Of a DNA stretch of 64,000 bases, positions 3,003 through 59,228 are shown piece by piece. Made by a program: the position numbers and the translations under genes. Every line of letters starts with the position of its first letter. The first letter of the stretch is position 1. The notes beneath the pieces are model-generated. The model searched no databases. It was given only the letters and a program-made list of their open reading frames with translations, and had not been told where the DNA came from. The stretch lies in NCBI GenBank assembly GCA_035449085.1, contig DAOTKE010000001.1:1232-65231 (forward strand), written 5' to 3'. Source of the DNA: Kiritimatiellia bacterium (GTDB taxonomy: Bacteria; Verrucomicrobiota; Kiritimatiellia; RFP12; UBA1067).

Positions 3003-3289
3003 AGAAATGATGAAGACAATGTACCAAATTTTTGCGGACGGTCAAAGGCGATTTTTCAAATAAGAAAAAGGCGCATCCCCAGTTCACTGATTTCTGTTTG
3101 CCGGCTTCGGGATGGGAAGGCCGGAAACCGGCGAATGCCGGCAAGCATCCCGATCAGCTTTCAAGTTATGGACGAGATGACGAAGACACCTGGCCGGACT
3201 AAATCATCATCCTGATCTTAATCGGCCCCGCAGGCAAAGGCCTGGCGTCATGCGTTAAATTTAAGATGCGTCGGCCCTGACGCGTCGGT

Positions 3290-3318
3290 TTGACCAAAGG
3301 TATGGGGCCGCGTATAAT
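3290..3318 (+). promoter_or_regulatory. Near-consensus sigma70 promoter (TTGACC-17 bp-TATAAT) for the giant surface-protein gene
   Basis: TTGACC at 3290-3295, 17-nt spacer, TATAAT at 3313-3318, in an AT-richer island ~140 nt upstream of ATG 3458. Confidence 0.5.
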
Positions 3319-3457
3319 GGGAGGCAAATGTTAGCGAGTGTTTGACCTAAGTGGATGGTCTGTTTTCCTGCGTAGAGTGACGAAGAGGGGCGGGCCGGGA
3401 AAAACGGCTCGCATCAACGGGATCATTCCCTCGTCTGAAAAGTGAAAGGTGCTTAAC

Positions 3458-41380: not shown

Positions 41381-42427
41381 TCACGCCATCGGGCAGCTTG
41401 TCTCGGCGGCCATGTAGTCACCGGTGGCGGCATAGGCGCGCGCCCGGCAGCCGCCGCATCCGTGGCGGAAAGCGCACCGACCGCACGCGCCGCGGTAACA
41501 GTCGGGCTGCCGCAGATCATTGAAGACCGGCGAGGTCTCGTAGGCGCGGCGGAAATCGAACCCATGCTCGCGCAGGTCGCCGCTGGGCACGTCGAGGAAT
41601 CCGCACGGCTGCAGGATGCCGGTGTGGGAGATGAAGACAAAACCGCGGCCGCCCATGCAGCCGGCAGGCGGCTGTCCGGGCTTGCCCAGCGCGTGCCAGA
41701 TCCGCACGGCTTGCGGCGCACACGTCTCACGCACGCGGATCGGGCCTTGGCGGTCCATTTCGAAGGCCCAGCGCAGGACGGCCTCTGCCTCGTCCGCAGG
41801 TAACGCGAGATCGCGCAGGCCGGCACCGCGCCCGACCGGCACCAGGAAGAAAAGGTCGAGCGTGCGCGCGCCGCGCGCGATCGCCTGTTCGCGGATGGCC
41901 GGCAGCGCGTCGCGGTTGAGCCGTGAGACGGTGGTGTTCACCTGGAAGGGCATGCCGATCTCTTGCGCGATGGACATGGCGCGCGTGACGTTGTCGAACG
42001 CGCCGGCTACGCCGCGGAAGGCGTCGTGATCTGCGGCGCAAGCGCCGTCGAGGCTGAAGCTGCATGCCATGACGCCGGCCTCTTGCAGGGCCAGCAGTCG
42101 GTCGCGGGTGACCAGCGTGCCGCACGGCGCCATGACCGAGCGCAAGCCGCGCGTCGCGGCGGCGCGCACGAGGTCGAGGATGTCGGGCCGTGCCATCGGC
42201 TCACCGCCGGTCCAGATGATCATCGGCCGGCAGAACGCGGCGAGGGAGTCCAGCACGCGCAGGCATTCGCCGGTCGTCAGCTCATGGTCATAGGCGCGGT
42301 CCTGGGCGCCGGCGCGGCAGTGGCGGCAGGCCAGCGGACAGCGGCGCGTGACTTCCCATGCGATCACGCGGGGCGTACCGGCGGGCGCTTCAGCGGCGGT
42401 GTGTCCATGGGGGGGGCGTGCGTTCAT
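41381..42427 (-). CDS. Radical SAM/SPASM-domain enzyme, NirJ/AhbC-AhbD-like (copy 2)
   Basis: 348 aa. CPLACRHC (CxxxCxxC), GGEPM SAM motif. C-terminal SPASM cysteines CGRCAFRHGCGGC..C. Confidence 0.75.
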   Translation of the reverse strand: MNARPPHGHTAAEAPAGTPRVIAWEVTRRCPLACRHCRAGAQDRAYDHELTTGECLRVLDSLAAFCRPMIIWTGGEPMARPDILDLVRAAATRGLRSVMAPCGTLVTRDRLLALQEAGVMACSFSLDGACAADHDAFRGVAGAFDNVTRAMSIAQEIGMPFQVNTTVSRLNRDALPAIREQAIARGARTLDLFFLVPVGRGAGLRDLALPADEAEAVLRWAFEMDRQGPIRVRETCAPQAVRIWHALGKPGQPPAGCMGGRGFVFISHTGILQPCGFLDVPSGDLREHGFDFRRAYETSPVFNDLRQPDCYRGACGRCAFRHGCGGCRARAYAATGDYMAAETSCPMA

Positions 42428-43611
42428 GAGCGGGCAGGCGCGATTTCTTCGTCTGTCAAATAACAGGCCGGATCCACGCCCCAGATGTCGCCGGTGGCGG
42501 CCTCGGCGCGCGCGCGGAAGTTGCCGCCGCAGACATCGAGAAAACGGCAGGCCACGCAGCGTCCTGTGACGTGCTGCTTTTTGGCGCGCAACTGAGCGAG
42601 CAGGCTGTCCGGCGCGGGCTCACCCCAGATTTTGCTGAAGGGGGTTTGGCGCACGTTCCCGAGCGGCTTGTTGCGCCAGAACTGATCCGGGTAAACGGTG
42701 CCGTCCCAGCTGATGCATCCGATGCCGTGGCCGGTGCTGTTGCCGCCGTTCATGCGCAGCAGTGTCATCACTTCGTCGGCGCGCGGATTCTGTTCGCGCA
42801 GCATGCGCAGATAGAGGTAGGGGCCGTCGCAATGGTTGTCCACGGTGAGCACCTCCACCGGGAAACCGCGCCTGTGCAGCCGTGCGGTGCGGTCGATGAT
42901 CAGATCCAGTGTGGCGCGGCGCTGCTCCGGCGCGAGGTCGTGCGACGCGATGTCGGCGCCGCGGCCGCAGTAGACCAGATGGTAGAGGCAGATGCGCGGA
43001 ATGCGTTCGGCCTCCATCAAATCAAAGATCGCCGGAATGTCGGCGACGTTGTCGCGGGTCATGGTGACGCGCAGACCGACCTTGATACCGGCCTCACGGC
43101 AGGCGCGGATGCCGGCCACGGAACGCTGGAACGCGCCGGGGCAAACGCGGAAACGGTCGTGCGTGGCCTCGCTGCCGTCGATGCTGATACCGACATACGA
43201 GACGCCGATCGCCTGAATCTGCGCGGCGAGCGCGGCGTCGATCAGGGTGCCGTTCGTCGAAAAGACCACACGCAGGCCCTTGCCGACGGCGTGGCGCGCG
43301 AGATCCAGAATGTCAGGCCGGATGAAGGGCTCGCCGCCCGAAAAGAGCAGGACGGGGCAGCCGAAGGCGGCCAGATCATCGATCAGGGCAAACGCCTCTT
43401 CAGTGGTCAGTTCGTCGGAGCTGCCTTGGGCTGCGGCATAGCAGTGGGTGCAGGCCAGGTTGCATGCAGAGGTGACGTTCCAGACGGCCACCGGCTTCTT
43501 GTCGGCGGAAAACTGCAGCAGATGGCTGGGCAGCTTAGAGGAATGACGGCCGTAACGCAGGGGGTCGGACACTTCGACCTGGCCCATGTAGAGCTTGGAA
43601 ATCCCGATCAT
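42424..43611 (-). CDS. Radical SAM/SPASM-domain enzyme, NirJ/AhbC-AhbD-like (copy 1)
   Basis: True start ATG 43611 (MIGISKLYMGQVEVSDPLRYGR). CNLACTHC, SGGEPF, C-terminal CVACRFLDVCGG..C. ATGA overlaps at both ends. Confidence 0.75.
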   Translation of the reverse strand: MIGISKLYMGQVEVSDPLRYGRHSSKLPSHLLQFSADKKPVAVWNVTSACNLACTHCYAAAQGSSDELTTEEAFALIDDLAAFGCPVLLFSGGEPFIRPDILDLARHAVGKGLRVVFSTNGTLIDAALAAQIQAIGVSYVGISIDGSEATHDRFRVCPGAFQRSVAGIRACREAGIKVGLRVTMTRDNVADIPAIFDLMEAERIPRICLYHLVYCGRGADIASHDLAPEQRRATLDLIIDRTARLHRRGFPVEVLTVDNHCDGPYLYLRMLREQNPRADEVMTLLRMNGGNSTGHGIGCISWDGTVYPDQFWRNKPLGNVRQTPFSKIWGEPAPDSLLAQLRAKKQHVTGRCVACRFLDVCGGNFRARAEAATGDIWGVDPACYLTDEEIAPARS

Positions 43612-46061
43612 GGATTCACCTTGTTTTCGTGGGTGGTTGGGAGGGGCGGCACAGCGGCGGTTGCAGCGGGCATGTCGCTGGTCAAGGGCTCGCGCACCGA
43701 AAAGGTGACTGGCGCGGAACCCACGACGAGACCGTTGGTGGTGGCGGCGGCGGCCCAGAGCGTGTAACGGCCGGTGCCGAGGCGCGACTGCGGCGGGCCT
43801 TTCTCGACGGTGGCCGAGCAGACGGGGGTCGCGGAGCAACCGAGACGCTTGTGGTCGAGAAACAGCGCGAGGAGACTGATGCCGACAGACGCATCGGCCT
43901 CGGCGCGCGCGGTCACAAAGGCGGGGCCGTCGATCACGCTGTCCGGAGCCGGCAACGTCACACGCACTTGCGGGATTGGGGCGCCGTCGGTCGAAACGCG
44001 GAATGTGACAGATATGTTTTTTTCGTGAAAGCGGCGATCGGCCGAGGTGGTCGTCACGACGACCGGCAAGATGCCTTTGGCGTAGTCGGCGGCGGTCGGC
44101 GCGAGTTGGACAGGGCTGCCGCTGTCGTTGTCGGGTGAGAAATAGATCTCTTGTGTGAATCGGCCGTTCTGCGCGATGCGGGCGCACACGATTTCACTGG
44201 GGCGCGTGGTCGGACGCAGCAGCACGGTATAACCGGTACTGGGCGAAACCGCTGTGCGGTCAAAAACCAATGATCCCGGCGAATGATCGTCGAGATTGAG
44301 CAGGAAGGGACGCAGATCGTTTGCGCCATCGATCCCTTTGTCTTCGGACTGGACGCTGGCCATCATATGGAAAAAAAGCGAGGGCGTGTTCGTGGCAGGC
44401 AAGACACGGATGGTTTGTTCGATGTCGAAGTTGTCCGGTGTGAAGACCAGCGACTCGCGCGAGAGTTGGGCGACACCCGGGATGTCGGTGGCGCAGAAGA
44501 CACGGGCCTCGCGTGTGGGGCGATCCCGTAACCGGATGCCGACGAACCCGGGCCTGTCGGTGTCGATGCGGTAGGTGCCGCTGCTCATGAGGATGGCGTT
44601 GACCGGTTCACGCAGTGTGGCGAGTTGGCGCATGGTGTCGAAGCCGATGCGGGCGCAGCGGTCATGCAGGCCGAGCGGGTGGTCGGCGTTGGCGTGCCGC
44701 GGCTTCGCCTTTTCGGGAGGCGGCACATAACGGTCCGTCACCGTGGTGTAGAGCATGTTGGCGAGCATGTAGGTCAACCAGTCGTTGACGCGTCCGGGGT
44801 GGGGCGGCCGGACAAGAGAGGCGTCGGTCTGGTAGGCGCGGGCCCAGGCGAGCGGATAGGGGATAAAGGCCATGCCGCGTGCTTTGGCGAATTCATAACC
44901 TTCGATCAGGATGGTTTCAAGGCGGCGCAGGGTGGCGAGTCCGTCCGGGTCGTCTGCCGGTGTGCGGCAGAAGACGGCCGTGCAGGGGGGCGGCTGATTG
45001 GTAGGGGGCTGGCTCAGCGATGTGTAGAGCTGGGGATCGGCGTAAAGGCTCATCTGTTGCATGTCGCCGTACACGAGGTCAAAGGCCGAAGCATAACGGT
45101 CAAAACCGTCGGAATACCAGTCGGCGGGCGTTTTCCAGAACCACTCCTGGAAAGCGGAGTCCAGGATGAACAGAAGGTTTTGGCGCAGGGGATCATCGGA
45201 GACGGTGTTGGGCACATAGATTTTGAGCCGGTGTTTGATGCGCGGCTCGATGCGCACGACACCCGAAAAGGGGCCGCTGTAGTGACGGGTCGTGCGCGCG
45301 ATCGAGACCGCATCGCGCGCGGAGAGTGCGAGCGCTTCGGTGGTGCGCCGGGTGGTCCAGTAGGTTTCGAGTGCTCCCTTGGGGATGCGCCCGCCCACGA
45401 GTTGGATATAGACGGTGGCGGCGGTCAGGTAGGCGCAGGCGCGGGCGCGTACCGGCGAGGTGCCGGGCAGACGGTTGCGGGCCAGGGTTTCTTGCCAAGC
45501 AAAGGCGGCAGGCACCACTTCCACGCCGCAACCGTCACCGACACGGTAGACCGTCTCTGCGATGGCGGGCAGGCGTTTATCGCGGAATGAGGTGCCGGGT
45601 TTGCTCATGACGGCCAGTGCCGTGCGCAGTCCGGCCGTGCGCGCCTGCGCATTGATCGCGCGGACGCCCTCGAAAAAGAACTCGGGATAGTCACTGACGC
45701 AAGCCTCGTGTTCCGCGAGCACGAGCAGGTCATACCCGCCGCTGAAAAGTTGCGCACGCTCGGCCTGGGTGTCCGGATGGTACCACCAGCCCATCAATGT
45801 GCGGGTGAGTGTGACCGGTACGAACGCGACCCGCACCGGCTTGCCGGGCTTGGCGGCTTTGAGCATGCTTTCGAGATCGGAACAGATATCGGCGGCGTCA
45901 ATCCCGCCGGCCTGCTGCGGCGTGGAGAGCCATGCCACGCGGATGAAGCCGTCGGCGTTGCGGTCGAGGTCAGACACTGATGCCTGTGACGGGCGCGGAG
46001 CAACCGTAGCCGCCAGCGCGGCCAGCCATCCGATGATCGGTATCCACAGCCGCTGGGTCAT
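43608..46061 (-). CDS. Secreted hypothetical protein (817 aa) with C-terminal Ig-like region
   Basis: True start ATG 46061 (MTQRLWIPIIGWLAALAATVA signal peptide) with RBS AGGAG. The upstream ORF extension is an antisense shadow. No recognisable catalytic motif. Confidence 0.55.
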   Translation of the reverse strand: MTQRLWIPIIGWLAALAATVAPRPSQASVSDLDRNADGFIRVAWLSTPQQAGGIDAADICSDLESMLKAAKPGKPVRVAFVPVTLTRTLMGWWYHPDTQAERAQLFSGGYDLLVLAEHEACVSDYPEFFFEGVRAINAQARTAGLRTALAVMSKPGTSFRDKRLPAIAETVYRVGDGCGVEVVPAAFAWQETLARNRLPGTSPVRARACAYLTAATVYIQLVGGRIPKGALETYWTTRRTTEALALSARDAVSIARTTRHYSGPFSGVVRIEPRIKHRLKIYVPNTVSDDPLRQNLLFILDSAFQEWFWKTPADWYSDGFDRYASAFDLVYGDMQQMSLYADPQLYTSLSQPPTNQPPPCTAVFCRTPADDPDGLATLRRLETILIEGYEFAKARGMAFIPYPLAWARAYQTDASLVRPPHPGRVNDWLTYMLANMLYTTVTDRYVPPPEKAKPRHANADHPLGLHDRCARIGFDTMRQLATLREPVNAILMSSGTYRIDTDRPGFVGIRLRDRPTREARVFCATDIPGVAQLSRESLVFTPDNFDIEQTIRVLPATNTPSLFFHMMASVQSEDKGIDGANDLRPFLLNLDDHSPGSLVFDRTAVSPSTGYTVLLRPTTRPSEIVCARIAQNGRFTQEIYFSPDNDSGSPVQLAPTAADYAKGILPVVVTTTSADRRFHEKNISVTFRVSTDGAPIPQVRVTLPAPDSVIDGPAFVTARAEADASVGISLLALFLDHKRLGCSATPVCSATVEKGPPQSRLGTGRYTLWAAAATTNGLVVGSAPVTFSVREPLTSDMPAATAAVPPLPTTHENKVNP

Positions 46062-47197
46062 CGTGCTCCTGCCGCAGCCGGACGCACGGGGCCGGCCTTC
46101 GAAAGGGGTTTGCCGATAATCCGCAGCAGGGTGGTTTCCAGAAGAAACATTTCGGGCAGCGCGCACGACACGAGCTTTTCGCGCAGATCCAAGATGCGGT
46201 AGCGCGCCACGCGGAGTTCCTGAAGCGTAAAGTTGAGGGCGTGGGGCAGCTTCTTCTTCAACGCCCACGTCCCGGTTGCGGTCGGGTTGACCGGCAACGC
46301 CTGCAGCAGCGCGGCCGCTTCGGGCGGCAGGTTCTTGCTCCAGCCGCAAGCGCCGCCCGTGCCGCCATAGACCCATTTGCGGTCATGGGCCTCGCGCAGA
46401 ATCAGCAGATCGCGCACCGTTTTTTCAAGCATCGAGGCGAGCATGACGCCGATGCCGCGCTGGCCGCTCAAGCGCTTGAGGGTCGTGAGGACGCCCAAGG
46501 CGTTGCGTTCGCCAAAGGCGTCGAGTAGATCCCAGGCCTCCGCCTCGCGGCCGATGGAGGTGATCTCGCGCACGTCGTTCACGGTGACACGCTGATTGGC
46601 CCCCACGTAGAGCCGCAGCTTCTCGATCTCGCTCACCAAGAGCCGCGTGTCGCAGCCGACGCGCGTCAGAAATTCGGTGCGTGCGGCCGCATCAACGGTG
46701 AGTCCCGCCTGAGCGAACAGGTCGTCTGCACGTTTCCCGGCCAGTTCTTCAAGTTCCCATGCCTTGAGGCCGTTCCCGAAGTCCTGCACCACGCCGTGCT
46801 GCTGGCAGGTTTTGAAAAAAATGGAGCTACGCAACACTTTGGTCGTCGTGATGATCAAAGACTGTCCTTCGAGCAGGCCGCCTTTCAGCCAGGCGACGAG
46901 CTTCTGGACGGCCTCTTTGGCGGCGATCGATTCGGAGCTGCGTCCGTTGCCAGGAAGAAAGGTCACATCGCGGAACCAGGTGACTTTGGTGGATCCGAAA
47001 AAGCCGGGTGTCTGCACCGATTCCAGACAGGCGTCCACGGCCTTGCTGATCTCATCGGAAGTGTCGCGGTGGCCATCCACGGTCTCGACGCCAAACGCGC
47101 GATCTGACTCCGGTACGAGTTGGTTGATCCTCTCGCGCGCAGCCATATCGACGAGATAATCGTCGTCACCGCAAATAAGACACAGTTTCCCTTCCAT
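46058..47197 (-). CDS. holA: DNA polymerase III subunit delta (HolA)
   Basis: 379 aa. Conserved pattern ..LICGDDDYL.., EIEKLRLYVG, WDLLDAF. Confidence 0.7.
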   Translation of the reverse strand: MEGKLCLICGDDDYLVDMAARERINQLVPESDRAFGVETVDGHRDTSDEISKAVDACLESVQTPGFFGSTKVTWFRDVTFLPGNGRSSESIAAKEAVQKLVAWLKGGLLEGQSLIITTTKVLRSSIFFKTCQQHGVVQDFGNGLKAWELEELAGKRADDLFAQAGLTVDAAARTEFLTRVGCDTRLLVSEIEKLRLYVGANQRVTVNDVREITSIGREAEAWDLLDAFGERNALGVLTTLKRLSGQRGIGVMLASMLEKTVRDLLILREAHDRKWVYGGTGGACGWSKNLPPEAAALLQALPVNPTATGTWALKKKLPHALNFTLQELRVARYRILDLREKLVSCALPEMFLLETTLLRIIGKPLSKAGPVRPAAAGAR

Positions 47198-47245
47198 AGG
47201 CCCACCAGTATAGTGAATGCCGTCGCGGTTGGCGAGACGCCAATC

Positions 47246-48178
47246 TCATTTTCGCGGGGATATTCGCACGGCCATTGGGATGACGAAAGGCAGGCGGGCG
47301 TCTTTGACAAACCAGCGCGTGCCTTCGATGGTGACCTCGGCACCGATGTGCGGCCCGTAGGCGAGTTCCGGAGCCAACAGGTTGCAGAGGGGGACGGCAT
47401 CGCCGTCCGGCTCACGGGCCACGAGACAGAAGGGGGCGGAGATCGGGTCGATCCCGCCCCAGTCCAAGGTGCCGCGCAAGGTGACACGTTCGCCTTGGAC
47501 GGCGGTCTCATCCAGCACGAACCCGGCCAGTTCCGGAGGACGATGCACGACTCGGGGCGGTGTTGCAGGAGGCATGGGATCGGGGAAGCCCGGATCGGAC
47601 GGTGCGGCGGGATCAGACGGTTGCGCAGGCGGCTCGGACAATGCATTGAGCAGTGCGCGGTAAAGGTCGGTCGATGCCTGCGGCGCATCGGGCTCGCGGG
47701 GCCATTCAGCCAGCGGCTCGACCTGGTCGCGCAAGACCCAAAATGTCATGTTGGTGGGCGGGGCGATCTTGAGCCAGTCACCATACATGCCGCGTACCTG
47801 AACGGCCGTGCCGCGGTCAAGACTGGCAAGCGGGCGGAAGGCCGGGCCCGCGCCGGAGCGCACCAGACTCTTGTCGGCCAGCACCTTGCCGTCGCGGACG
47901 AGATCGCGGTAGATCCACACCGCGACCGAGGAAGGCGCCTCGACCGGTGTCCAGGGGGCGTCAGTCAACTCGCCGACAACGGCGAGCACCGACCCGGCGG
48001 GCAGCCAGGCAACCGCCTCGAGCGGTGAGTTGGTCGAGGCATAGAGCGCGAGACGCCCTTGGATGCCGCGCACGCTGCTGCCGCCAACCGCTTCGGCAAA
48101 GACCATCGTTCCGGCGGCCAACGCCGGCAAAAGCAACGGCAGGAACGCATGCCGTGAACGGGACGTGCGGAGTACCAC
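47246..48178 (-). CDS. Secreted bacterial SH3-like (SH3b) domain protein
   Basis: Signal peptide. VRSGAGPAFRPLASLDRGTAVQVRGMYGDWLKI matches the SH3b consensus. Pro-rich linker. Confidence 0.5.
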   Translation of the reverse strand: MVLRTSRSRHAFLPLLLPALAAGTMVFAEAVGGSSVRGIQGRLALYASTNSPLEAVAWLPAGSVLAVVGELTDAPWTPVEAPSSVAVWIYRDLVRDGKVLADKSLVRSGAGPAFRPLASLDRGTAVQVRGMYGDWLKIAPPTNMTFWVLRDQVEPLAEWPREPDAPQASTDLYRALLNALSEPPAQPSDPAAPSDPGFPDPMPPATPPRVVHRPPELAGFVLDETAVQGERVTLRGTLDWGGIDPISAPFCLVAREPDGDAVPLCNLLAPELAYGPHIGAEVTIEGTRWFVKDARLPFVIPMAVRISPRK

Positions 48179-48646: not shown

Positions 48647-51600
48647 ATGATTTTGGGAAGACTCCTTATGATCAATAAGCTGTTTTTGGGCGACTCCCGT
48701 GAGGGTGCTTTTTTCCGTCGGGTGGATTGGACGGCCTTCTGGACCGCAACGCTGATTTCGTTTTTGGTTTACTTCTTTACGTTGGGGCCGTCGGTGACGC
48801 TGGAGGACTCCGGCGAGCTGGCGGTTGCGGGCGATCATCTGGGTGTGCCGCATCCGCCCGGCTATCCGATCTGGACGATGTGTGCCTTTGTGTTTGCGCG
48901 CCTCTTCAGTTGGGTGACCTATCAGGGGCAGCCGACGCCAGCGTGGAGCATCTCGCTGATGTCGGCGTTCTTTGCCGCGCTGGCGGCCGGCTTCACGGCG
49001 ATGTTGATCACGCGTTCGGCAACCGACATGCTGCGTGACGCGCATGACGGTGAGGAGGATTTCGATCCGGCTCAGAGCAATGTGCTGTGCTGGGTGGGCG
49101 GCGTCGGCGGCAGTCTGGTCTTTGCCTTCAGCCCGGTCATGTGGTCGCAGGCCACGATCGTGGAGGTGTACACGCTGAACGCCTTCTTCCTGATGTGGAT
49201 CTTCCTGTTGACCTATCGCTGGATGCGGCGTCCATCTGACAAAATTTTGTGGTTGACCGCCTTTGTTTTCGGGCTTGGCCTCACCAACTATCAGGTGCTG
49301 TTGCTGGCGGCGCTGCCGCTGGTGGTCATGATCTTCCTGCGTGACCTCGCCCTGTTCCGCGATTTCCTCATGGTCGGCATTCCGATCTTGCTGAGTGCGC
49401 ATGTGTTGCAGATAGGCGCGATGATGCCCGCTCAGCCCGGCATGGCGGGGCCCGCCTACGCGAAGGTGACGCCAGGCGCGTTGAATGCGGTAATGGTGCC
49501 CTCTCTGTCGCTGCTGGTGGCGGGCGCGGTGTGTGTGTTCTTGGGATTGATCGCGGCGCTGTTCCTGAAGGGCTGCGCGACCGGCGGAGCAACGAAAGGG
49601 CGTTTCGCGTTTCTCAAGAGTGTGGCGCCGCAAGGCGGCGCGATCGGCGCGGGTCTGACGGCCTTCGGCGCGTTACTGGTCTTCTTCTCGATGGGGGCGG
49701 CGAAGACCGGCGTGAAGGCGGCGACCGACCTGCCGCTGTTTGAGTCCTCGGTCTACACCAGTGTGGCGGGGCTGATCCTGTTGGTGCTCGCGCTCTGCAT
49801 CGGTGGCGCGTATGCGTACCGTGACCGGCTCAACGATAAGGCGGTGCTGGCCTGGTTGATCCCGGCGTGCGCGATGCTGCTGATCCTCTTTTTCAGGCTT
49901 TCCGCCATCAAAGGCACTGTGTTGCCACCAGGCTACATGGGACAGCCATTTGATTGGGCGCTGCCGTCGGTTGCGCTGATGGGTGGGCTGGCGGTGCTCT
50001 TTCTGCTGGGGGCGACCGTGCCGCGGGGCCTCTTCTACGCGATTCCCGTGGCGGCGGTGCAGATCTCCGTGTTTGTGCTGTTGCGCAAGGGCGGCATGAA
50101 CGGTCTGACGCACCCGACCTCCTGGTGGTTCTGGTGGGGCGCACTCTGGAATTTCGTCATCATCGGGCTGGCGTGGCTGACCCTGCCGCACGGGCGCAGC
50201 GTCGCGCTGACCACGCTCTGCGCCGAGTTGGGCGTGTCGTTCTACATTTACATGCCGATTGTCTCGGACCTGCGCAATCCGCCCATGAACTGGGGCTACC
50301 CGCGCACGTGGGAAGGGTTCAAGCACGCCATCACGCGCGGCCAGTATGAGAAGCTGGCGCCCTCCGATGTTTTCACCAAGAAGTTCCTCTTCCAGCTCGG
50401 CACCTACTTTACCGACCTGCGCGTGCAGTTCACCCTGATCGCGGCCACGCTGGGCTTCATCCCCTTCACGCTCTGGAGCTTCAAAATCGGCGGACGACGT
50501 ATCCGCGCCTTGTATGTGGCGAGTGCGTTCTATCTGCTGACCTGTGTGGTGGTGCTGCTTTCCGAAGTTATGGGCGGCGAGCCGGTGTTGCGTCTCGACA
50601 AACTCTTTATCGCGGCCATCCTGCTACTGTTACTGGTCGGCACCACTACGATCATGTTCCGCCAGATCGAAGAGTTCGCGCGCCGTACTTGGCGGGCGCA
50701 CAATCTTTCGGAGGGGCTGACAGCCGGCATCACGCTGGCGGGCATAGCGGCGGGCGTCGGACTTTTCGTGGCCAAAGGCATCCTCAGCATGATGAGCGGG
50801 CCGGGCATTGTGCCGGGTATCGGCGCCAAGGTCGGTGCGCTGGCTTTGGCGCTGGTTATCCTGGCGGCGGTCGGCACCGGCTGGTTCTTTTTCCGCCGGT
50901 GGGCCGAACGGCAGGTCGACTTCCGCTCGGACATGGATATGGTCACACAGCAGTGGCTCATCTCCACGACAGCCGGTTTCTTGGTCATGAGCGTGTTGCT
51001 CGTGGTGCTCGCCAACATCAAGGGCGACCTGCAGGACATGTTCATCCAGAAAGTGAAGTTCATCAGCTCGCACGGCCTCTTTGCGATCTGGATCGGTTAC
51101 GGCCTCGTTTTCGGTCTGTCGGTCGGCAACCGCCTGCTGAAGACTTTGGTCAAGCGCGGTACGTTGCCTGCGGCTTTGCTGAAGCCGTTGCGCACCGGCA
51201 TGCTGTGCGCGGGACTGTTGGTCGCGGCCATCCCGATCTACGAGAACTACACCAACGAGTATCTGGTCTTTTCGATGAGCGGCGCGGAACAGAACGGCCA
51301 CGATTTCGGCTGGCAGTTCGGCAATTACCAGTTGCGCGGCGCGGACGCGATCACGGAGGAGCTGGATGCCGACGAGGAGCCGCTGCCCAACCCGCTCTAC
51401 CCGCCAGAAATGGAGCCCAACGCCATCTTTTTCGGCGGCACGGATCCCGGGCGCTTTGTGCCCACCTACATGATCTACTCGGCGCGGGTGCGGCCCGACG
51501 TTTTCCTGATCACGCAGAACGCGCTGGCCGACAACACCTACATGAACACCATGCGCGACCTGTACGGCAATCCTATCTGGATTCCGACGCCGGACGACAG

Positions 51601-52813
51601 CGCGCGCGCCTTTCAGATTTATGTCGATGAGGTGCAGGCAGGCAAGCGCCCCAAGAACGCCGATCTGACGATCGAGAACGGCCGCGTGCAGGTGAGCGGT
51701 GCGCTGGGCGTGATGGAGATCAACGGCATCCTGTGCGACATGATCTTCCAGAAGAACAAGGCGCGTCACGCTTTCTATATCGAAGAGAGCTACGTCATCA
51801 ACTGGATGTTCCCGTATCTCACGCCGCACGGGCTGATCATGAAGATCAACTCCGAGCGGACGCCGATCGAGCGTACGAACATGCAGGACGATATGATGTT
51901 CTGGGATTGGTACACGCGCCACCTGCTGCGCTCTCCGATGTTCCGGCGCGACCTGCCGGCCCAGAAGTCGTTCTCCAAGTTGCGCAGCGCGATCGCCGGT
52001 CTTTATGCGGCACGCGGCATGCTGGTCGAAAGCGAGCGGGCGTTCCAGGAGGCGCGGACGCTCTATCCGGTCAGCCCGGAGGCCAATTTCCGCCTGGTCC
52101 AAGAGGTGTTGCTGCGCCAGGCGCGCTACGACGAGGCGATCGACATTCTCGATGAGTACAACCGGCGCGACCCGAACAACGGGCGCGGCTTCGATTTCGT
52201 CTCGTTCATTCGCCGCGTGCGCGCGACCGAGGCCAAAGTGCGCGACCTGACCGCCAAAGCGCAGGCCAACAAGCAGCTCTCACCGGAAGACGCCTTTGAA
52301 CTGGCCATGGCCTACCGCGAGCTGGGGCAAAACGAACCGGCCGCTTCCTATCTCAACCAACTGGCGGTCCTGCCCAATCTCCCGGTCGAGCGGCTGCTCG
52401 AAATCGGCGCGTTGCTCGGCAGCCTCAAGAAGCATGAAGATGCTGCCAAGGTGATGGATAACGTGATGGCGCGCCTGCCGGCCAACCTCCCGCCTGAACA
52501 GCTCATGGAGATCGTGCGGGTGTACGGCGATGCTGGCCAGCCGGACAAGATGATCGTACCGCTTTCGCGTTATCTGCAGATCCGCCCGAATGATTGGAAC
52601 GCATGGATCGACATGGCGACACTCAGCGCGTTGCGCCAGCAGCAGCAACAGATGCAATACGCGTTGCGTAAGGCGCTGGAACTGGGCAAAGGGCAGGCGA
52701 TGCAGCGGATTCAGGAGAACGGTGTGCTGCGTCAGGTTGCAGGGCCGATTTTGCAGCAGATGATGCAGCAGGGGCCGGTCGGGCTGCCGGGCCTGGGGCC
52801 GCGAGGGCAGTGA
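48647..52813 (+). CDS. DUF2723 (TMEM260-like GT-C glycosyltransferase fold) membrane protein with C-terminal TPR repeats
   Basis: 1388 aa, more than 20 TM helices. DSGELAVAGDHLGVPHPPGYP is the DUF2723 hallmark. C-terminal 400 aa are TPR-like. Confidence 0.7.
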   Translation: MILGRLLMINKLFLGDSREGAFFRRVDWTAFWTATLISFLVYFFTLGPSVTLEDSGELAVAGDHLGVPHPPGYPIWTMCAFVFARLFSWVTYQGQPTPAWSISLMSAFFAALAAGFTAMLITRSATDMLRDAHDGEEDFDPAQSNVLCWVGGVGGSLVFAFSPVMWSQATIVEVYTLNAFFLMWIFLLTYRWMRRPSDKILWLTAFVFGLGLTNYQVLLLAALPLVVMIFLRDLALFRDFLMVGIPILLSAHVLQIGAMMPAQPGMAGPAYAKVTPGALNAVMVPSLSLLVAGAVCVFLGLIAALFLKGCATGGATKGRFAFLKSVAPQGGAIGAGLTAFGALLVFFSMGAAKTGVKAATDLPLFESSVYTSVAGLILLVLALCIGGAYAYRDRLNDKAVLAWLIPACAMLLILFFRLSAIKGTVLPPGYMGQPFDWALPSVALMGGLAVLFLLGATVPRGLFYAIPVAAVQISVFVLLRKGGMNGLTHPTSWWFWWGALWNFVIIGLAWLTLPHGRSVALTTLCAELGVSFYIYMPIVSDLRNPPMNWGYPRTWEGFKHAITRGQYEKLAPSDVFTKKFLFQLGTYFTDLRVQFTLIAATLGFIPFTLWSFKIGGRRIRALYVASAFYLLTCVVVLLSEVMGGEPVLRLDKLFIAAILLLLLVGTTTIMFRQIEEFARRTWRAHNLSEGLTAGITLAGIAAGVGLFVAKGILSMMSGPGIVPGIGAKVGALALALVILAAVGTGWFFFRRWAERQVDFRSDMDMVTQQWLISTTAGFLVMSVLLVVLANIKGDLQDMFIQKVKFISSHGLFAIWIGYGLVFGLSVGNRLLKTLVKRGTLPAALLKPLRTGMLCAGLLVAAIPIYENYTNEYLVFSMSGAEQNGHDFGWQFGNYQLRGADAITEELDADEEPLPNPLYPPEMEPNAIFFGGTDPGRFVPTYMIYSARVRPDVFLITQNALADNTYMNTMRDLYGNPIWIPTPDDSARAFQIYVDEVQAGKRPKNADLTIENGRVQVSGALGVMEINGILCDMIFQKNKARHAFYIEESYVINWMFPYLTPHGLIMKINSERTPIERTNMQDDMMFWDWYTRHLLRSPMFRRDLPAQKSFSKLRSAIAGLYAARGMLVESERAFQEARTLYPVSPEANFRLVQEVLLRQARYDEAIDILDEYNRRDPNNGRGFDFVSFIRRVRATEAKVRDLTAKAQANKQLSPEDAFELAMAYRELGQNEPAASYLNQLAVLPNLPVERLLEIGALLGSLKKHEDAAKVMDNVMARLPANLPPEQLMEIVRVYGDAGQPDKMIVPLSRYLQIRPNDWNAWIDMATLSALRQQQQQMQYALRKALELGKGQAMQRIQENGVLRQVAGPILQQMMQQGPVGLPGLGPRGQ

Positions 52814-52814
52814 G

Positions 52815-54488
52815 ATGACGCATACCCTGTCACGCGCGTTGGGCTGGTCCGTCGCCGCTGCGATCATTGCCGGTGCCGCTGTGCTGCGACTGCCGCGCCT
52901 CGACCAGCGTCCAATGCACGGTGACGAGGCCAACCAGGCGGTAAGGACGGGGCTGCTGCTGGACCAGGGCTTTTACCACTACGATCCTGCCGATCATCAC
53001 GGTCCAACGCTCTATTTCGCGGCCTGGCCGTTCTGCCGCGTGACGGCGCGAACTTTCGCTGAAACAACCGAATGGAACTACCGTCTGGTGCCGGTGACGT
53101 TCAGCCTGCTCACACTGCTGATGATGCTGGGGCTGGGTTCACGTGAGAGCGGCCACGGTCTGTTCGCCAGCCGGGCAGGAATCTACAGCGCTGCGCTCCT
53201 CACCGCCGCATCACCGGCGATGACCTACTATAGTCGCTTCTTCATTCAGGAATCGATGCTGCTCACCTTCCTGACCGGCATGCTGCTGTGCGCCATGCGC
53301 TACGCCGCCGCGCACAGCAGCCTAGAGGCCAGAGGTCAGAGGTCAGAGGTCAGCAACCAGCAACCAGCAACCAGGAACCAGCAACCTGTAACCCTCCTCT
53401 GGGCTGCTGGCTTCGGCGCGTTTGCGGGGCTGGCCGCCGCGACCAAAGAGACGGCGGTGCTTTCGTTCGCCGCGGCGGCGGTGGCGCTGGTCGTGGCTTG
53501 CGGCTTCGGTCGTTTGTGGCGCATGTGGCGTACCCGCGACGCGCTGGTGGCGGTCGGTGCGGCCGCGTTCGTGGCCGTGCTCTTCTACTCCTCGTTCTTC
53601 ACTTACTGGTGCGGCGTTTACGACGCGCTCTTTTCAACTTTCCAGACCTATCACACGCGGGCCACGGCGGTGCCTGAACATCAGCATCCCTGGGATTTTT
53701 ATCTCAAGATCATCTTCTGGTTCAAGTACGGGCGCGGCCCCGTGTGGAGCGAAGCCGGCTTGCTGCTGCCGGCCGCGCTGGCGGTCGGTCTTGCCTTCCT
53801 GCCGTTCCGGCGACCAAGCGCGGTGGACGCGGGAACCCGGACGCGCCGGCGCTGGTTGCGTTTTCTGTCGGTCTATACGCTGGCCCTGACGGCGCTCTAC
53901 AGTGCGATCCCCTACAAGACACCATGGTGTGCGCTCTCGTTCCTGCACGGTTTCATCCTGCTCGCCGGAGCGGGTGTCGACGCATGCTGGATGGCCTGCT
54001 CGCGGAGGACAGACACCGCAGGATCTGAATCGGTCTTCGCGCCGTTGCGCCTGTGCGGGAAGCTGGCTGTCGTGCTGCTCGTCGCCGCACTGGTCTGGCG
54101 GCATGCGGCGCAGGCGCGCCGCGCCTGTTTCAAAATGCCGGCCGATCCGCGCAACCCATACGTCTACGCGCATACCGGCAGCGACGCGATGAACCTGGTG
54201 GCCGAGATCGAACGTGCCGCGCGGCACGCAGAGGGAACCGACACCCTGATCGCGCTGGCGGTGCCCACGCCCGACACCTGGCCGCTGCCGTGGTATCTGC
54301 GCAAATACCGCAACGTAGGATATTGGACTCGCGTCGTCGATATCCCGGCCGATCTGCAGCCGACCGTGGTGGTTGCCGCCGCCGATCAGGGTGATGCGGC
54401 TGACGAGCGTTTCGGGCGCGGCAAGCGTGCTTCCTTTTTCGGTATCCGCCCCGGTGTGCTTCTGAACCTGTTTGTGCCTGAAAAGTGA
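52815..54488 (+). CDS. GT-C fold glycosyltransferase, PMT_2/ArnT-like (TIGR03663 family)
   Basis: 557 aa, multi-TM. N-terminal loop MHGDEANQA (DE motif of PMT/ArnT family). Starts 1 nt after the DUF2723 stop. Confidence 0.65.
   Translation: MTHTLSRALGWSVAAAIIAGAAVLRLPRLDQRPMHGDEANQAVRTGLLLDQGFYHYDPADHHGPTLYFAAWPFCRVTARTFAETTEWNYRLVPVTFSLLTLLMMLGLGSRESGHGLFASRAGIYSAALLTAASPAMTYYSRFFIQESMLLTFLTGMLLCAMRYAAAHSSLEARGQRSEVSNQQPATRNQQPVTLLWAAGFGAFAGLAAATKETAVLSFAAAAVALVVACGFGRLWRMWRTRDALVAVGAAAFVAVLFYSSFFTYWCGVYDALFSTFQTYHTRATAVPEHQHPWDFYLKIIFWFKYGRGPVWSEAGLLLPAALAVGLAFLPFRRPSAVDAGTRTRRRWLRFLSVYTLALTALYSAIPYKTPWCALSFLHGFILLAGAGVDACWMACSRRTDTAGSESVFAPLRLCGKLAVVLLVAALVWRHAAQARRACFKMPADPRNPYVYAHTGSDAMNLVAEIERAARHAEGTDTLIALAVPTPDTWPLPWYLRKYRNVGYWTRVVDIPADLQPTVVVAAADQGDAADERFGRGKRASFFGIRPGVLLNLFVPEK
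53324..53393 (+). repeat. In-frame heptanucleotide tandem array (AGAGGYC)x4-(AGCAACC)x3-AGGAACC-AGCAACC-TGTAACC inside the TIGR03663 gene
   Basis: 10 consecutive 7-nt units. Encodes the low-complexity loop EARGQRSEVSNQQPATRNQQPVT. Confidence 0.75.
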
Positions 54489-55803: not shown

Positions 55804-56010
55804 GAAGGAGGCGACGCTGCCCGTATTCAATCTCACACACGAAGGACACCACGTAAGTGGTTGCCGGGTTCCGTGGCGTCGTCAGCGCGGTCCGTCAAAT
55901 AGAAAAGACACCGTAGGTTTTTTTGAGGCGGTCAGATTTCCAGTGCCCGAAATTAAGTTGCGCGAAAGCCGGAATTCGGTATTCTATCTTCTGTGGAAGG
56001 GATTATTGCT

Positions 56011-56445
56011 ATGAAATCTATAGTTGCGCCAATCGCTGTTCTGGGAACTGTTGCTGTTCTGGCTGATCCTGTAGGCGGGGCCGGCGAGTGGGAGTTCACC
56101 GGTGAAGCCCCCGACCAGCAGCTTACAGTGTTGTCCGGCGAGTGTACGATCGATGAAGCCATTGATGGCTGCAGCCAGGTGTACATCCTGGAAGGTGCGA
56201 AACTGACGCTGAATGTCGACGAACCATTTATCTCCCAGCCGGAACTGCACAACTTCGGCACCTTGGAGTTGAACGGATACTCCATTTCGGTCAGGAGGTT
56301 CGACAACACGATCGAGAGTAGCGCCATCCGGGGGAAGTTGCCGATGGTGGTCAATTCCTCCGAGGAACCTGTTTCCTTGCGGGTGACGGGCGGGGCAAGC
56401 TCTTGCTATTATACGGATCCATTCGCGAGAACCCTGGCAGGATAG
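56011..56445 (+). CDS. N-terminal fragment (signal peptide plus ~110 aa) of giant PATR/discoidin surface protein 3; frame lost between 56322 and 56445
   Basis: ATG 56011 with RBS GGAAGG. Signal peptide MKSIVAPIAVLGTVAVLA. PATR-like strands. Reading frame of 56403..59228 is open from 56322. Confidence 0.55.
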   Translation: MKSIVAPIAVLGTVAVLADPVGGAGEWEFTGEAPDQQLTVLSGECTIDEAIDGCSQVYILEGAKLTLNVDEPFISQPELHNFGTLELNGYSISVRRFDNTIESSAIRGKLPMVVNSSEEPVSLRVTGGASSCYYTDPFARTLAG

Positions 56446-59228
56446 ACGTCGATTGTAAGCCCAGCCTGCGTCTGGTGGGGCCTGAAGGTTCATGCGCGGT
56501 TTCGTCGGTGACCAACGGAACCAGCGGGCAAATGCTCGCGCATTCGCGTCCTACGAACATAAGATTCGCGTTTCAGCCTCCCTCTGACCCAAGCTTGACA
56601 CTGCGTGTTGCGGAAATTACCCTGACGTACAAGGGAGTGCCCATCCCGCATCAGGGTGACGTGGGTGTGTCCTCCTCCTATGGTTCCAATAATGGCGCCA
56701 AAGTGATAGATGGGCGCGCCGATACCTTCTGGCAGGCTGCCGATACTGGGGTTCAGGCAGCGACCCTATACGAGTTGAATTTTTATCCTGTGGATGGTTA
56801 CAGAATCACGCCGACCAAGGTGGCCGACGGTCAGGATTTCAACCCAACGGGATGGGACGTCTATGTCTATCGTGCGCAGGAAGTCGGCTGGGTGAGGGTG
56901 GACTCGCAGCGCGATGTGGTCTGGCCAAGGGCGACGGTTGAAGGTAAAGATTCCCACGCCACAACCAATTTCTTCTTCTCTCGGGAACTGATGCCGGGGA
57001 GTGTGTTCGGCCCGGAAACAGATTTGGCGGTTCTCGGTACCGGGGCGCAATCTTTGCGTGTGACGACGGCCGAACCGTTGGTCGTAGGCCATCTCACGGC
57101 CAAAGGGAGCGTATCGCTTGAAAATGGCAGTACGCTTTCCGTGAAGTCTCTGAAGGATTTTAGCGGCCAGTTTGTGACAACTGCGGATGCGGGGTATCTC
57201 AAGCAGGCGAAGGTCGCGATCCGTGCCGAAGGGGGCGAGGAACAGGCCGTGCCGGTCACAGCCATCGCCACTAACCTCGCGGTCGTCAATGGCGGCACGG
57301 CGCCGGTCTCGCTGCTCCTGAACGATGGGGACCGCCAGTTCGGCCGTCTCGCAGACGGCGATTTCGGGGGCAAGCTCGGTGTCGTGAAACGCGGCTCGGG
57401 GACGTCGTGTCTGGCAACGGAAGACGCCGGCTACACGGGGCCGACGCGCGTCGAGGAAGGTACGCTCATGGTCGTTGGCGGGGGCTTGTCGGTCGGCACC
57501 GTCACGGCCAAGTACATACGGGTACGCCCGTTGGCGACTTATGGCACTTTGACGAGAGGGAGTGATTTTGTCGATCAGTACGGATTCAACTGGGCGATCG
57601 GCTATTTCCAGCTTTTGGATGAGGGCGGGAACCAGGTGAACATCTCTGCCGCCAGTGTGAGCGCGCCTTATGGGTTTATTAATAACGACAGTATAGCTGC
57701 CATGTGCGGTGATACAACCAAACGGTGCCTCATTAAAAACGGGGGAGATGTTGCGTCTGCTTTGCATCCCGTGACCATCTACTTGAGCACGGGGATCACC
57801 TTTGCCGGATATCTGTGGTGCCCGGATCTGAATAGCCCCAGCGCGGTGGAGACGCGCAACCCGGTGGAACTGGAGATCGCGGTTTCCGATGACAATGAGA
57901 ATTGGACGGTGGTCGACGTGTCATACTTCCCGCACTCCGGCGGCGATTGGCATACGGTCGAAAAATCGATCGTTCGTGGCCCCGCTGCGCTTTCGGGCTT
58001 GCGTCCCGCACGGGCTGGCTCCATTCTCAAAACGCTTCCTCAGTCGCTTCTGGCCGATCCGCCCAATCCCCGCCAGACGTTTGCCAAGCTGAAGTCAAAG
58101 ATCTTCCAGTTCGAAGTCTTTGAGACGAACAACCCGGAAGCGAGCGAAGATAGCTATGGATGGCACATTGCGGAGCTGTCGCTATACAGGGATGGCCAGA
58201 GAATGGAGTGGCCGGCGGGAACGACTATTACCTGCGCCGGCGCGACGGTGAATGTGAACAACAATTCAAGGCTGACGAACATCTGCAACAATGTGGTCTG
58301 GGAACCCAGTGAGGGTGGGGACACAACAATGCGTGAGGGGTGCTTCGTTCAGGGCTATCCCAGCTATGTGACCATCACCACGCCGGAGGAGATCGCGTTC
58401 GACGCCTATTCGTTCCATTCGTCGGCCAATACAGTATTTTGCAGGGCCCGTATCCCCAGTTGCTGGCGTCTGCGGATCAGGAGCTCTCCGTCTGCCGACT
58501 GGTACATTGCCGATGCGCATACGGATTTCCGTGAAGGCAAGGAATATCCTGTCATCACCAAAGCCTATCAGGAAATCGGCCCGTTCTATGTCGGGGATAA
58601 ATTCCCGCTACTGGACATGGGGGCCTGCAATGTGTTGGGCGACGAGTCTCCGGTCACCATCGCCGCTGGTGCGACTTTGAAGATTGCCTCCGCTTATGAA
58701 AAGATGGGGCCGATCTCGGGTGCCGGAACGCTCGTGCTGGATTGGGCTACGACCGCCGAGATCAATGCCTGCGCTCCCGCGACTTTCTCGGGAAAGGTCG
58801 AGCACTACGGCAGGAAGGGCACCTTGGCCGTGACGGGGGCCGCTGTCCAAACCTTTGACAATGTCGACCTCTCGGGTGTGGCGACGCTCGAGCTGAATGG
58901 CGGTGCGCTCGTGGGGACGGCTTCCGCCGGTGGCGACCTCGCCGTACAGTTCAATGGCGGCGCGTATAACGGCACGATAACGGTGCCTGGTGCGCTGTCG
59001 GTGACTGGCACGATGAAGATTGCCGTACCGGAGAATGTGGTGAGTGGATATCGCCGCACGCTCTTCACTTACGAGTCGATAGACGATGCTTCGAAGGAAA
59101 TCCTGCGGTCGGCATCAGCCGATAATCCCGAATCGCTTCCCCAAGGCTTCAGGATGCTTGTGACGGCCAAAGAGACCGAATGCACCGTCTCCATCGCCGC
59201 TCTGGGCACGCTCGTCATCTTCCGCTAG
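56403..59228 (+). CDS. Giant surface protein 3 main body: F5/8 type C (discoidin) domains plus PATR beta-strand repeats; lacks its own signal peptide
   Basis: 941 aa. Discoidin-like segments (..NPVELEIAVSDDNENWTVVD.., ..GWHIAELSLYRDGQRMEW..). PATR modules (VKRGSGTSCLATEDAGYTGPTRVEEGTLMV.., ISGAGTLVLDW..). Confidence 0.7.
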   Translation: MLLYGSIRENPGRIDVDCKPSLRLVGPEGSCAVSSVTNGTSGQMLAHSRPTNIRFAFQPPSDPSLTLRVAEITLTYKGVPIPHQGDVGVSSSYGSNNGAKVIDGRADTFWQAADTGVQAATLYELNFYPVDGYRITPTKVADGQDFNPTGWDVYVYRAQEVGWVRVDSQRDVVWPRATVEGKDSHATTNFFFSRELMPGSVFGPETDLAVLGTGAQSLRVTTAEPLVVGHLTAKGSVSLENGSTLSVKSLKDFSGQFVTTADAGYLKQAKVAIRAEGGEEQAVPVTAIATNLAVVNGGTAPVSLLLNDGDRQFGRLADGDFGGKLGVVKRGSGTSCLATEDAGYTGPTRVEEGTLMVVGGGLSVGTVTAKYIRVRPLATYGTLTRGSDFVDQYGFNWAIGYFQLLDEGGNQVNISAASVSAPYGFINNDSIAAMCGDTTKRCLIKNGGDVASALHPVTIYLSTGITFAGYLWCPDLNSPSAVETRNPVELEIAVSDDNENWTVVDVSYFPHSGGDWHTVEKSIVRGPAALSGLRPARAGSILKTLPQSLLADPPNPRQTFAKLKSKIFQFEVFETNNPEASEDSYGWHIAELSLYRDGQRMEWPAGTTITCAGATVNVNNNSRLTNICNNVVWEPSEGGDTTMREGCFVQGYPSYVTITTPEEIAFDAYSFHSSANTVFCRARIPSCWRLRIRSSPSADWYIADAHTDFREGKEYPVITKAYQEIGPFYVGDKFPLLDMGACNVLGDESPVTIAAGATLKIASAYEKMGPISGAGTLVLDWATTAEINACAPATFSGKVEHYGRKGTLAVTGAAVQTFDNVDLSGVATLELNGGALVGTASAGGDLAVQFNGGAYNGTITVPGALSVTGTMKIAVPENVVSGYRRTLFTYESIDDASKEILRSASADNPESLPQGFRMLVTAKETECTVSIAALGTLVIFR

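Follow-up and report, generated by a model that had tools for sequence, protein, structure and literature searches.

An ancestral surface protein gene of a Kiritimatiellia bacterium split by a small indel: a probable recent pseudogene

Reading frames at the locus

The window analysed here is a stretch of 64,000 nucleotides from a Kiritimatiellia bacterium. Two ORFs in different frames lie on its plus strand: ORF 56011..56445 (ATG start, 144 aa), with a predicted signal peptide, and ORF 56403..59228 (941 aa), which has no signal peptide of its own. They overlap by 43 nt. ORF coordinates and translations thus agree with the preliminary description, which had reported this pair. The mechanical ORF of the 144-aa frame starts upstream at GTG 55993, and the N-terminus that follows the ATG, MKSIVAPIAVLGTVAVLA/DP, was judged to be signal-peptide-like by inspection. 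The second frame is open from 56322, and both frames are open over 56322-56445, where the 144-aa ORF ends at a premature TAG (56443..56445). Downstream of the signal peptide, the 5' part also encodes a beta-rich N-terminal domain, of which it contains the first half. The features of the locus and the other PATR genes of the window are listed in Table 1.

Table 1. Features of the split gene and of the other PATR genes in the window
Feature	Position	Strand	Remarks
First case, different PATR protein gene	3458..7512	+	~1351 aa restored; homologues P0033 and P0035 span both parts
Third PATR gene, intact	33689..35809	+	own signal peptide, two PATR repeats, C-terminal ...GGTAIFVQ-COOH
5' part of split gene	56011..56412	+	first frame, aa 1-134 of restored protein; tblastn, alignment
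Predicted signal peptide, MKSIVAPIAVLGTVAVLA/DP	about 56011..56064	+	by inspection
G-run CCGGGGG	56329..56335	+	first frame (IRGK), region still homologous to relatives; invariant in 11 loci
G-run CGGGGC	56391..56396	+	first frame VTGGASSCYY, matches CTGASDFSYYYG of homologues
Frameshift site, TGC TAT TAT ACG GA	56410..56414	+	tblastn HSP boundaries
3' part of split gene	56412..59228	+	second frame, aa 135/136-1072 and stop
Out-of-frame tail TDPFARTLAG of 144-aa ORF	56413..56445	+	translation; homologues without counterpart
Weak F5/8 type C match	56667..56906	+	in 3' part
Weak PATR match	57384..57467	+	in 3' part
C-terminal motif GTLVIFR-COOH	59205..59225	+	in 3' part

Homologues and the break point

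The homologues span both parts of the locus colinearly, which supports the earlier proposal of one frameshifted gene for a surface or secreted protein rather than two genes. Eleven homologues from Kiritimatiellia metagenomes, 1036-1089 aa in length, align over 96-100% of the fused sequence, with E values down to 6e-255. Their alignment is colinear through the junction, and both pieces lie in one uninterrupted ORF. ORF 56011..56445 and ORF 56403..59228 are thus two pieces of one gene. The relatives have the N-terminal part fused to the rest, and not as an independent conserved small secreted protein.

The frame-aware alignment placed the break at 56412 (TGC TAT TA/T ACG GA; protein ...SSCYY/YGSIRE...). 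In the tblastn comparison, the first-frame HSPs of the homologues P0002-P0015 terminate at 56412, and the second-frame HSPs begin there with contiguous homologue residues (for example, residues 147 and 148 in both P0002 and P0006); the frame switch falls exactly at this position in 9 of the 11 homologues tested. The change relative to the intact homologues is either a 1-nt deletion or a duplication of TA (TA to TATA), and it shifts the frame by -1. A single step would repair it: insertion of one nucleotide gives an open ORF of 1072 codons, and removal of one TA gives an ORF of 1071 codons. In the AF2 model (pLDDT 78-93 for aa 20-200), the junction separates strands E132-135 and E137-140, which belong to the same domain. 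The G-runs CCGGGGG and CGGGGC, which had been suspected as the shift site, are ruled out, since both lie upstream of 56412 and the first-frame homology passes both of them up to that position.

Domains, fold and relatives

The domain matches of the window protein are weak. PATR (PF12951) scored 24.7 bits for ORF 56403..59228 and 20.7 bits for the fused sequence (cut-off 27 bits), TIGR02601 scored 19.1 (cut-off 19.85), and F5/8 type C (discoidin) scored 21.4 bits (cut-off 28.2). Across the family, PATR and F5/8 type C were each matched by 11 of the 12 members (E≤0.1 for PATR; best E 4.8e-06 and 4.9e-10, respectively) and PF22633 by 8 of 12; the PF00754/PF22633 matches are weak throughout. A weak match to the CBM32 of the Clostridium perfringens GH89 enzyme (PDB 4a42, E = 0.0012) was also found. 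Weak PF12951/TIGR02601, PF00754/PF22633 and CBM32 matches are what the family shares with the PATR/TIGR02601 discoidin-bearing proteins; the window protein itself scores less than the curated cut-offs and has no translocator domain. No family of translocators or barrels came up in the Pfam and NCBIfam scans of the 12 members. At its C-terminus the protein has a short G-x-hydrophobic(4-5)-[R/K/Q] motif, for which the same two databases gave no match. Unlike a classical (type Va) autotransporter, the protein ends in this short hydrophobic motif and not in a C-terminal beta-barrel translocator. The whole-chain Foldseek search against the PDB returned nothing significant (best E 1.2e-03, TM about 0.1), with the Hap and EspP passengers among the non-significant matches, and the fold predicted by the model might be described as beta-rich and passenger-like only. 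Nothing relevant was found in the literature on autotransporters in Kiritimatiellia or under the name of the repeat.

The intact homologues adjoin GH2, GH123, GH28 and sialidase/SSF/DHDPS genes. Their flanks contain neither SDF nor ileS, and they are therefore paralogues or distant orthologues; no close intact orthologue was found among the homologues whose synteny was compared.

Occurrence of the indel in other assemblies

At least 22 contigs encode the exact 144-aa product, and NCBI MAG records contain the same protein. Eleven loci (L001-L011) from about 10 samples share one and the same junction DNA, with 99.97-100% identity over 3.4 kb, and no length polymorphism was seen at the junction between these loci at the consensus level. 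They come from ENA, JGI and Logan assemblies, with contigs named in the styles of MEGAHIT, SPAdes, JGI and Logan; among the loci sharing the junction sequence is a second haplotype that differs by one SNP. Scans of the metagenome contigs for junction length variants, with a gapped pattern and with a plain 37-mer, had no match of any kind, this locus evidently being absent from that collection. Among 5.8 billion protein clusters, the sole match with >90% identity is the truncated 841-898-aa call, and no intact near-identical allele was present. Given the invariant junction of the 11 loci and the lack of an intact near-identical copy among the clusters, the indel is real in the DNA and appears fixed, without length variation among the assemblies. 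The contigs with the locus are nearly clonal; they establish the indel as real and are silent on its persistence time, and the samples may derive from only a few related studies.

PATR genes of the window and splits in the two families

Three ORFs in the window match PATR: 33689..35809 scores highest with 52.5 bits, followed by 4141..7512 with 33.2 bits and 56403..59228 with 24.7 bits. The gene at 33689..35809 is intact, and its C-terminal motif is of the same kind as in the other PATR ORFs. The statement that the other two genes are split holds, both pairs being true frameshifts by homologue alignment. The upstream pair (ORFs 3449..4144 / 4141..7512), to which the same architecture had been ascribed, is indeed split at 3787-3792 (YWEKTGV/STNDWW) without a homopolymer, and the tblastn frame change is found at 3784-3787. 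The word 'giant', used for these proteins in the preliminary description, is overstated for restored lengths of about 1072 and about 1351 aa.

Independent splits also occur elsewhere in both families. In the family of 56011..59228, these are L018/P0019, compared with the intact P0017, and L024/P0023; about 12 residues (roughly 37 nt) are missing in L018. The splits in the family of the upstream gene include the one in the window at 3787-3792, L021/L022 with about 45 residues missing, and L023, and other relatives have point shifts at unrelated positions. Apart from those in the window, the split members of both families sit in other organisms, and their break positions differ. P0009 and P0012 were considered as extra split members and rejected; their starts were mis-called, and the signal peptide lies in frame upstream. 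The family survey of genome contigs yielded one short locus, L017. More than 25 housekeeping genes in the window have full-length Pfam matches. The pattern had been called non-random, and disruption is indeed enriched in this gene class.

Discussion

The stretch 56011..59228 is probably an ordinary, recently inactivated gene (a pseudogene) and not a switchable one. The ancestral gene belonged to a paralogous family in Kiritimatiellia and encoded, as one gene, a product of ~1072 residues of the sugar-binding type that was probably secreted or surface-located. This product had a signal peptide and a beta-rich N-terminal domain, together with discoidin/CBM32-like modules, PATR-type beta-strand repeats and, at the C-terminus, a short hydrophobic motif. 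The indel at 56410-56414 (one base lost or TA duplicated) changed the frame by -1 within this N-terminal domain, so that translation begun at the true start now stops at TAG 56443 after 134 native and 10 foreign residues; the other 937 codons are left without the signal peptide and the first half of the N-terminal domain. Any product of internal initiation would remain cytoplasmic, since the 3' part has no signal peptide and an incomplete N-terminal domain. The loss of the signal peptide, seen in the sequence, and the break inside the modelled N-terminal domain suggest that the gene is non-functional and a recent pseudogene. Over its 941 codons the 3' ORF has stayed open, and of the 155 positions invariant across the 11 homologues it retains 138 (89%), a share within the range of the intact family members (88-100%). 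No decay beyond the indel is apparent in the sequence; this would fit a very recent event and continued function equally.

The preliminary description had suggested contingency (phase-variable) loci, and the assemblies might then happen to show the OFF state of reversible slipped-strand switching. Phase variation usually affects surface proteins; in the window, a -1 frame change in the 5' part has split two of the three PATR genes, and a minimal (TA)2 / (TAT)2 is present at the site considered here. Simple-sequence contingency loci are known from Haemophilus, Neisseria and Helicobacter, and the poly-G pmp genes of Chlamydia also belong here; as in these loci, a surface protein frame is interrupted in its 5' part, whereas in 56011..59228 the junction lacks a repeat tract and does not vary in length between assemblies. 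A homopolymer or repeat tract of switching length is absent at both junctions, TRF found no tandem repeats in 55900-59300, and the frame change sits in TATTATAC. Moreover, all 11 loci from about 10 samples agree in junction length, the 5.8 billion clusters contain no ON allele, and the splits of the relatives are heterogeneous (deletions in L018 and L021/L022, and point shifts elsewhere). A phase-variable locus is therefore very unlikely. The sequences are metagenome-derived, one contig has only about 4.8x coverage, and several assemblies may share reads, all of which could favour a sequencing or assembly artefact in a genome that actually has an intact gene. However, the same sequence is found in SPAdes-, MEGAHIT-, JGI- and Logan-style contigs with different run/sample accessions and in the second, one-SNP haplotype. 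The 8 bases between TGC and GGATCC (TATTATAC) are not a homopolymer, and both G-runs were read correctly. An artefact at this locus is most improbable, and the agreement of MEGAHIT, SPAdes, JGI and Logan at a non-homopolymer site also makes the suspected systematic error mode at G-runs unlikely.

Programmed recoding (a -1 ribosomal frameshift or similar) could make the full-length protein from the split gene; the needed frame change is indeed -1, both frames are open over 56322-56445, and the 3' ORF is undegraded. It is nevertheless extremely unlikely, as UGC UAU UAU ACG contains no X XXY YYZ slippery heptamer and tRNA-Tyr on UAU would have to re-pair with UUA, and the downstream RNA fold is unremarkable (z = 0.64; an equally good or better fold in 148 of 200 shuffles). 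The region is also in a single frame in all homologues, the relatives are unsplit here, and the split positions vary between family members. Gene calling gives both ORFs in every assembly, and an extended -10-like TGCTATTAT lies on the junction, which might point to a functional split in which the secreted 144-aa fragment, a cytoplasmic 3' product from internal initiation, or both have become useful. The probability of this is very small: no relative has a stand-alone 144-aa homologue, the break lies inside a single domain in the AF2 prediction, and the promoter-like count is at chance level (2 found vs 1.4 expected). It is also very unlikely, though conceivable, that the recurrent indel inactivation is an adaptive, population-level shedding or varying of exposed proteins (e.g. 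under phage or predator pressure), or that some of the split copies are still expressed unconventionally. If so, selection and not neutral decay would account for the split members, of which each of the two families has at least three, all broken differently.

The inactivated gene suggested here has parallels in known systems. Frameshift pseudogenes occur in autotransporter- and adhesin-type families, such as the split sca genes of Rickettsia and the autotransporter and fimbrial pseudogenes of Bordetella, Yersinia pestis and Salmonella Typhi. As in those cases, a large beta-helix-type surface gene of a multi-member family was hit by a small indel while the housekeeping neighbours are intact, and different family members are broken at different sites in different lineages. 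Unlike those host-restricted pathogens, the organism here is an uncultured member of the Kiritimatiellia from environmental or engineered-system metagenomes; unlike their autotransporters, the protein has no autotransporter barrel. The split gene might thus fit a broader tendency, in which large, redundant surface protein genes are lost via assorted indels. The best reading is a recurrent decay of large PATR-type surface protein genes, and neither contingency loci nor a G-run error mode. On present evidence, the split-gene pattern does not require a new mechanism.

The main value of the finding is for annotation. For this lineage, the two deposited 'hypothetical proteins' of 144 aa and 841-898 aa should be combined into a single gene annotated as frameshifted, as should the upstream pair (3449..4144 / 4141..7512). 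It also calls for caution in a first-pass reading, because the nearest G-run need not be the frameshift site, and the homologue alignment places the site to the base. Intact large secreted PATR/discoidin genes often adjoin glycoside hydrolase and sialic-acid genes, and these genes are repeatedly broken at unrelated sites. The family pattern is a modest lead on the turnover of the surface protein repertoire in Kiritimatiellia.

Architecture and relatives of the split gene

The gene at 56011..59228 was re-derived as two forward-strand ORFs in different frames (Table), in agreement with the coordinates and architecture of the preliminary description; the frame of the 3' ORF is open as far back as 56322. 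By inspection of the translations, the N-terminus of the 5' ORF (MKSIVAPIAVLGTVAVLA, followed by DP) is signal-peptide-like, and no such sequence was seen on the 3' ORF. The Pfam scores of the 3' ORF were sub-threshold for both PATR (24.7 bits vs a cut-off of 27) and F5/8 type C (21.4 bits vs 28.2); the PATR cut-off was exceeded by the two other PATR ORFs of the window (4141..7512 and 33689..35809). The PATR and discoidin labels proposed earlier are thus weak for the window protein alone. They appear to hold at the family level, where each was matched by 11 of 12 members.

Using the joined parts as query, 23 relatives were found, excluding the truncated call of the gene itself. Many have 1036-1089 aa and cover 96-100% of the joined sequence with 36-45% identity; in a second group (~1640-1670 aa) the C-terminal two-thirds correspond to the entire query region. 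One relative is named as from a Kiritimatiellae MAG, and both products of the split gene have been deposited separately as hypothetical proteins of Kiritimatiellia MAGs (HRR33369.1/HRR33370.1 and HRU69482.1/HRU69483.1). Multiple alignment showed that the relatives are colinear with the window sequence across the junction (...VSLRVTGGASSCYY plus YGSIRENPGRIDVD... opposite ...VTLSCTGASDFSYYYGEIREMPGKISLV...), which bears out the split of one gene. No stand-alone 144-aa protein was found among these relatives, and therefore the reading of the 5' ORF as an independent small secreted protein fails.

Table. Coordinates of the split gene, related features and other interrupted loci (L-numbers, fetched DNA loci; P-numbers, homologous proteins)
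Feature	Locus	Coordinates	Strand	Details
5' ORF	window	56011..56445	+	144 aa; ATG 56011 (mechanical start GTG 55993) to TAG 56443-56445
3' ORF	window	56403..59228	+	941 aa; TTG start; other frame than 5' ORF
C-terminal motif	window	59205..59225, 7489..7509, 35783..35806
Glycan-utilisation neighbourhoods of intact homologs	L013	5460..15341		also L014, L012, L015
Split member	L018	2879..7727		699 aa + P0019 (908 aa) vs intact 1671-aa P0017, 88-90% identity
Split member (P0023)	L024	2213..7157		frame change near residue 1480 of ~1642
Split first-case homolog	L021	4514..8447		residues 178/224
Split first-case homolog	L022	2302..6235		residues 178/224
Split first-case homolog	L023	1443..5478		residues 610/613
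P0009/P0012 loci	L019	133..3291
P0009/P0012 loci	L020	about 3230..6391
Overlapping ORF chain	window	42424..44187	-	radical SAM/SPASM
Overlapping ORF chain	window	43608..46376	-
Overlapping ORF chain	window	46058..47197	-
Overlapping ORF chain	window	46963..47688	-
Overlapping ORF chain	window	47246..48178	-	SH3_3

Position and origin of the frameshift

The frameshift is real and located to the base. By tblastn of 11 homologs (N-terminal 330 residues) against 55900-56900, nine were found whose first-frame match stops, and second-frame match begins, at 56412; the homolog residues on the two sides of this point are consecutive. The first frame reads TGC TAT TAT ACG GAT at the site, and the second reads TAC GGA TCC from 56412. 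Either adding one base after 56412 or removing one TA gives an uninterrupted ORF (1072 or 1071 codons, respectively); the lesion, whose net effect on the frame is -1, is therefore either the loss of a single base or the duplication of a TA. In an AlphaFold2 model built from a 12-sequence alignment (mean pLDDT 72), a beta-rich domain spans residues 20-200 (block pLDDT mostly 78-93) and the junction lies between strands 132-135 and 137-140, so that the break would pass through one single domain. Exactly on the site, at 56383..56412, there is a sigma-70-like match whose -10 is of the extended type (TGCTATTAT); since two such matches were found in the junction region vs 1.4 expected by chance, this is probably a coincidence.

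A contingency locus or a systematic error at G-runs had been suggested as the origin of the split. Neither origin is supported. The G-runs at 56329-56335 and 56391-56396 are both upstream of 56412, where the first frame is still read correctly, and neither of them is the frameshift site. The exact 144-aa product is recorded on at least 22 contigs, and the junction was identical in all 11 loci fetched from ENA assemblies (SPAdes-/MEGAHIT-style contig names), JGI metagenomes and one Logan assembly (99.97-100% identity to the window over 3.4 kb), including one haplotype with a single non-synonymous SNP. In a search of 5.8 billion protein clusters, no relative other than the truncated 841-898-aa call exceeded 90% identity, and no restored-frame allele was seen; Tandem Repeats Finder detected no tandem repeats in the gene. 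At the consensus level at least, this evidence speaks against repeat-mediated switching as well as against an artefact of the sequencing or the assembler. Programmed frameshifting is likewise unsupported, because no X XXY YYZ heptamer occurs at the site, the folding of the downstream 117 nt is not stronger than that of shuffles (z = 0.64), and the relatives are unsplit at this position.

Family features and genomic context

Members of the discoidin/PATR family combine a signal peptide with beta-rich regions carrying at least one PATR/TIGR02601 repeat, and discoidin/NedA-like galactose-binding modules are also present, with a weak sequence match to the CBM32 module 4a42 (E = 0.0012). The family has no autotransporter barrel; a whole-chain Foldseek search gave only passenger-domain matches, none significant. 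The intact homologs adjoin glycan-utilisation genes. One type of neighbourhood has GH2 upstream and a BNR_2 sialidase, an SSF transporter and a DHDPS-family (NanA-like) gene downstream; others lie next to GH123, GH28 or GH43-related genes. These neighbourhoods fit, and hint at, a secreted or surface glycan-binding protein. The window copy is flanked by an SDF symporter and ileS, and is therefore a paralog without conserved context.

The three otherwise dissimilar PATR proteins of the window share the C-terminal motif G-x-(4-5 hydrophobic residues)-R/K/Q-COOH, which is also found on almost every intact homolog (P0002-P0024, P0031 and P0037), for example GTLVIFR, GLAMYIR, GGTAIFVQ, GAVFFIR and GLILIFR. 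The motif has no family match in Pfam or NCBIfam, and may be a sorting or anchoring signal.

Other interrupted PATR genes

As described earlier, two of the three PATR genes in the window are broken, and the one at 33689..35809 is uninterrupted. The other broken gene (the first case, 3458..7512) is a true split of one ~1351-codon gene, with the homologs P0033 and P0035 covering both parts. Its frame changes at 3784-3792 (YWEKTGV/STNDWW); the change lies between an A-run and a G-run, each of them in the correct frame, so that this was no homopolymer event either. Its hits P0035 and P0038-P0042 have arginine-rich, out-of-frame-looking C-terminal tails.

Among the domain-matching genes, which are part of the window's ORFs, full-length matches were found for cell-wall/division genes, ABC transporters, phosphoglucomutase, phosphofructokinase, a Nuo51-type subunit, radical-SAM proteins, the SDF symporter and IleS. 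The PATR genes make up ~15% of the window, and the probability of two random hits both falling in them is ~0.02, a suggestive value rather than a strong one. The splits in other members of both families are more telling. Three of the 24 retrieved discoidin/PATR clusters are interrupted, two of them (L018 and L024) in other organisms, and split first-case homologs come from two NCBI MAGs (GCA_965339875.1 and GCA_965340275.1) and one ENA contig; the broken positions always differ. The lesions range from point indels to deletions of tens to more than 100 bases, and at the L018 junction about 12 residues are absent relative to intact P0017. Such heterogeneity is what gene decay looks like, rather than a dedicated switch.

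P0009 and P0012 were rejected as truncated members: they are annotated ~80 residues too short, with an in-frame upstream signal peptide but no ATG, so that translation probably begins at a non-ATG codon. Elsewhere in the window, the minus-strand ORFs at 42424..48178, which overlap one another in different frames, probably owe these overlaps to over-extended starts, the DNA being GC-rich. At 48647..54488, a 557-aa ORF that matches no Pfam family comes one base after the stop codon of a gene for a 1388-aa TMEM260-like/TPR protein.

State of the gene

No further stops interrupt the 3' ORF, which retains 89% of the positions invariant in 11 homologs, a share that falls inside the range seen for intact members. 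The near-clonal data are compatible both with a recent inactivation and with the persistence of some function. A recent pseudogene is the favoured and quite probable reading, since the protein body has lost its link to the signal peptide and the break is inside a domain; adaptive, recurrent inactivation or unconventional expression is very improbable. The gene is thus probably an ordinary frameshift pseudogene, if a neatly documented one, of a Kiritimatiellia surface protein family that is prone to decay.
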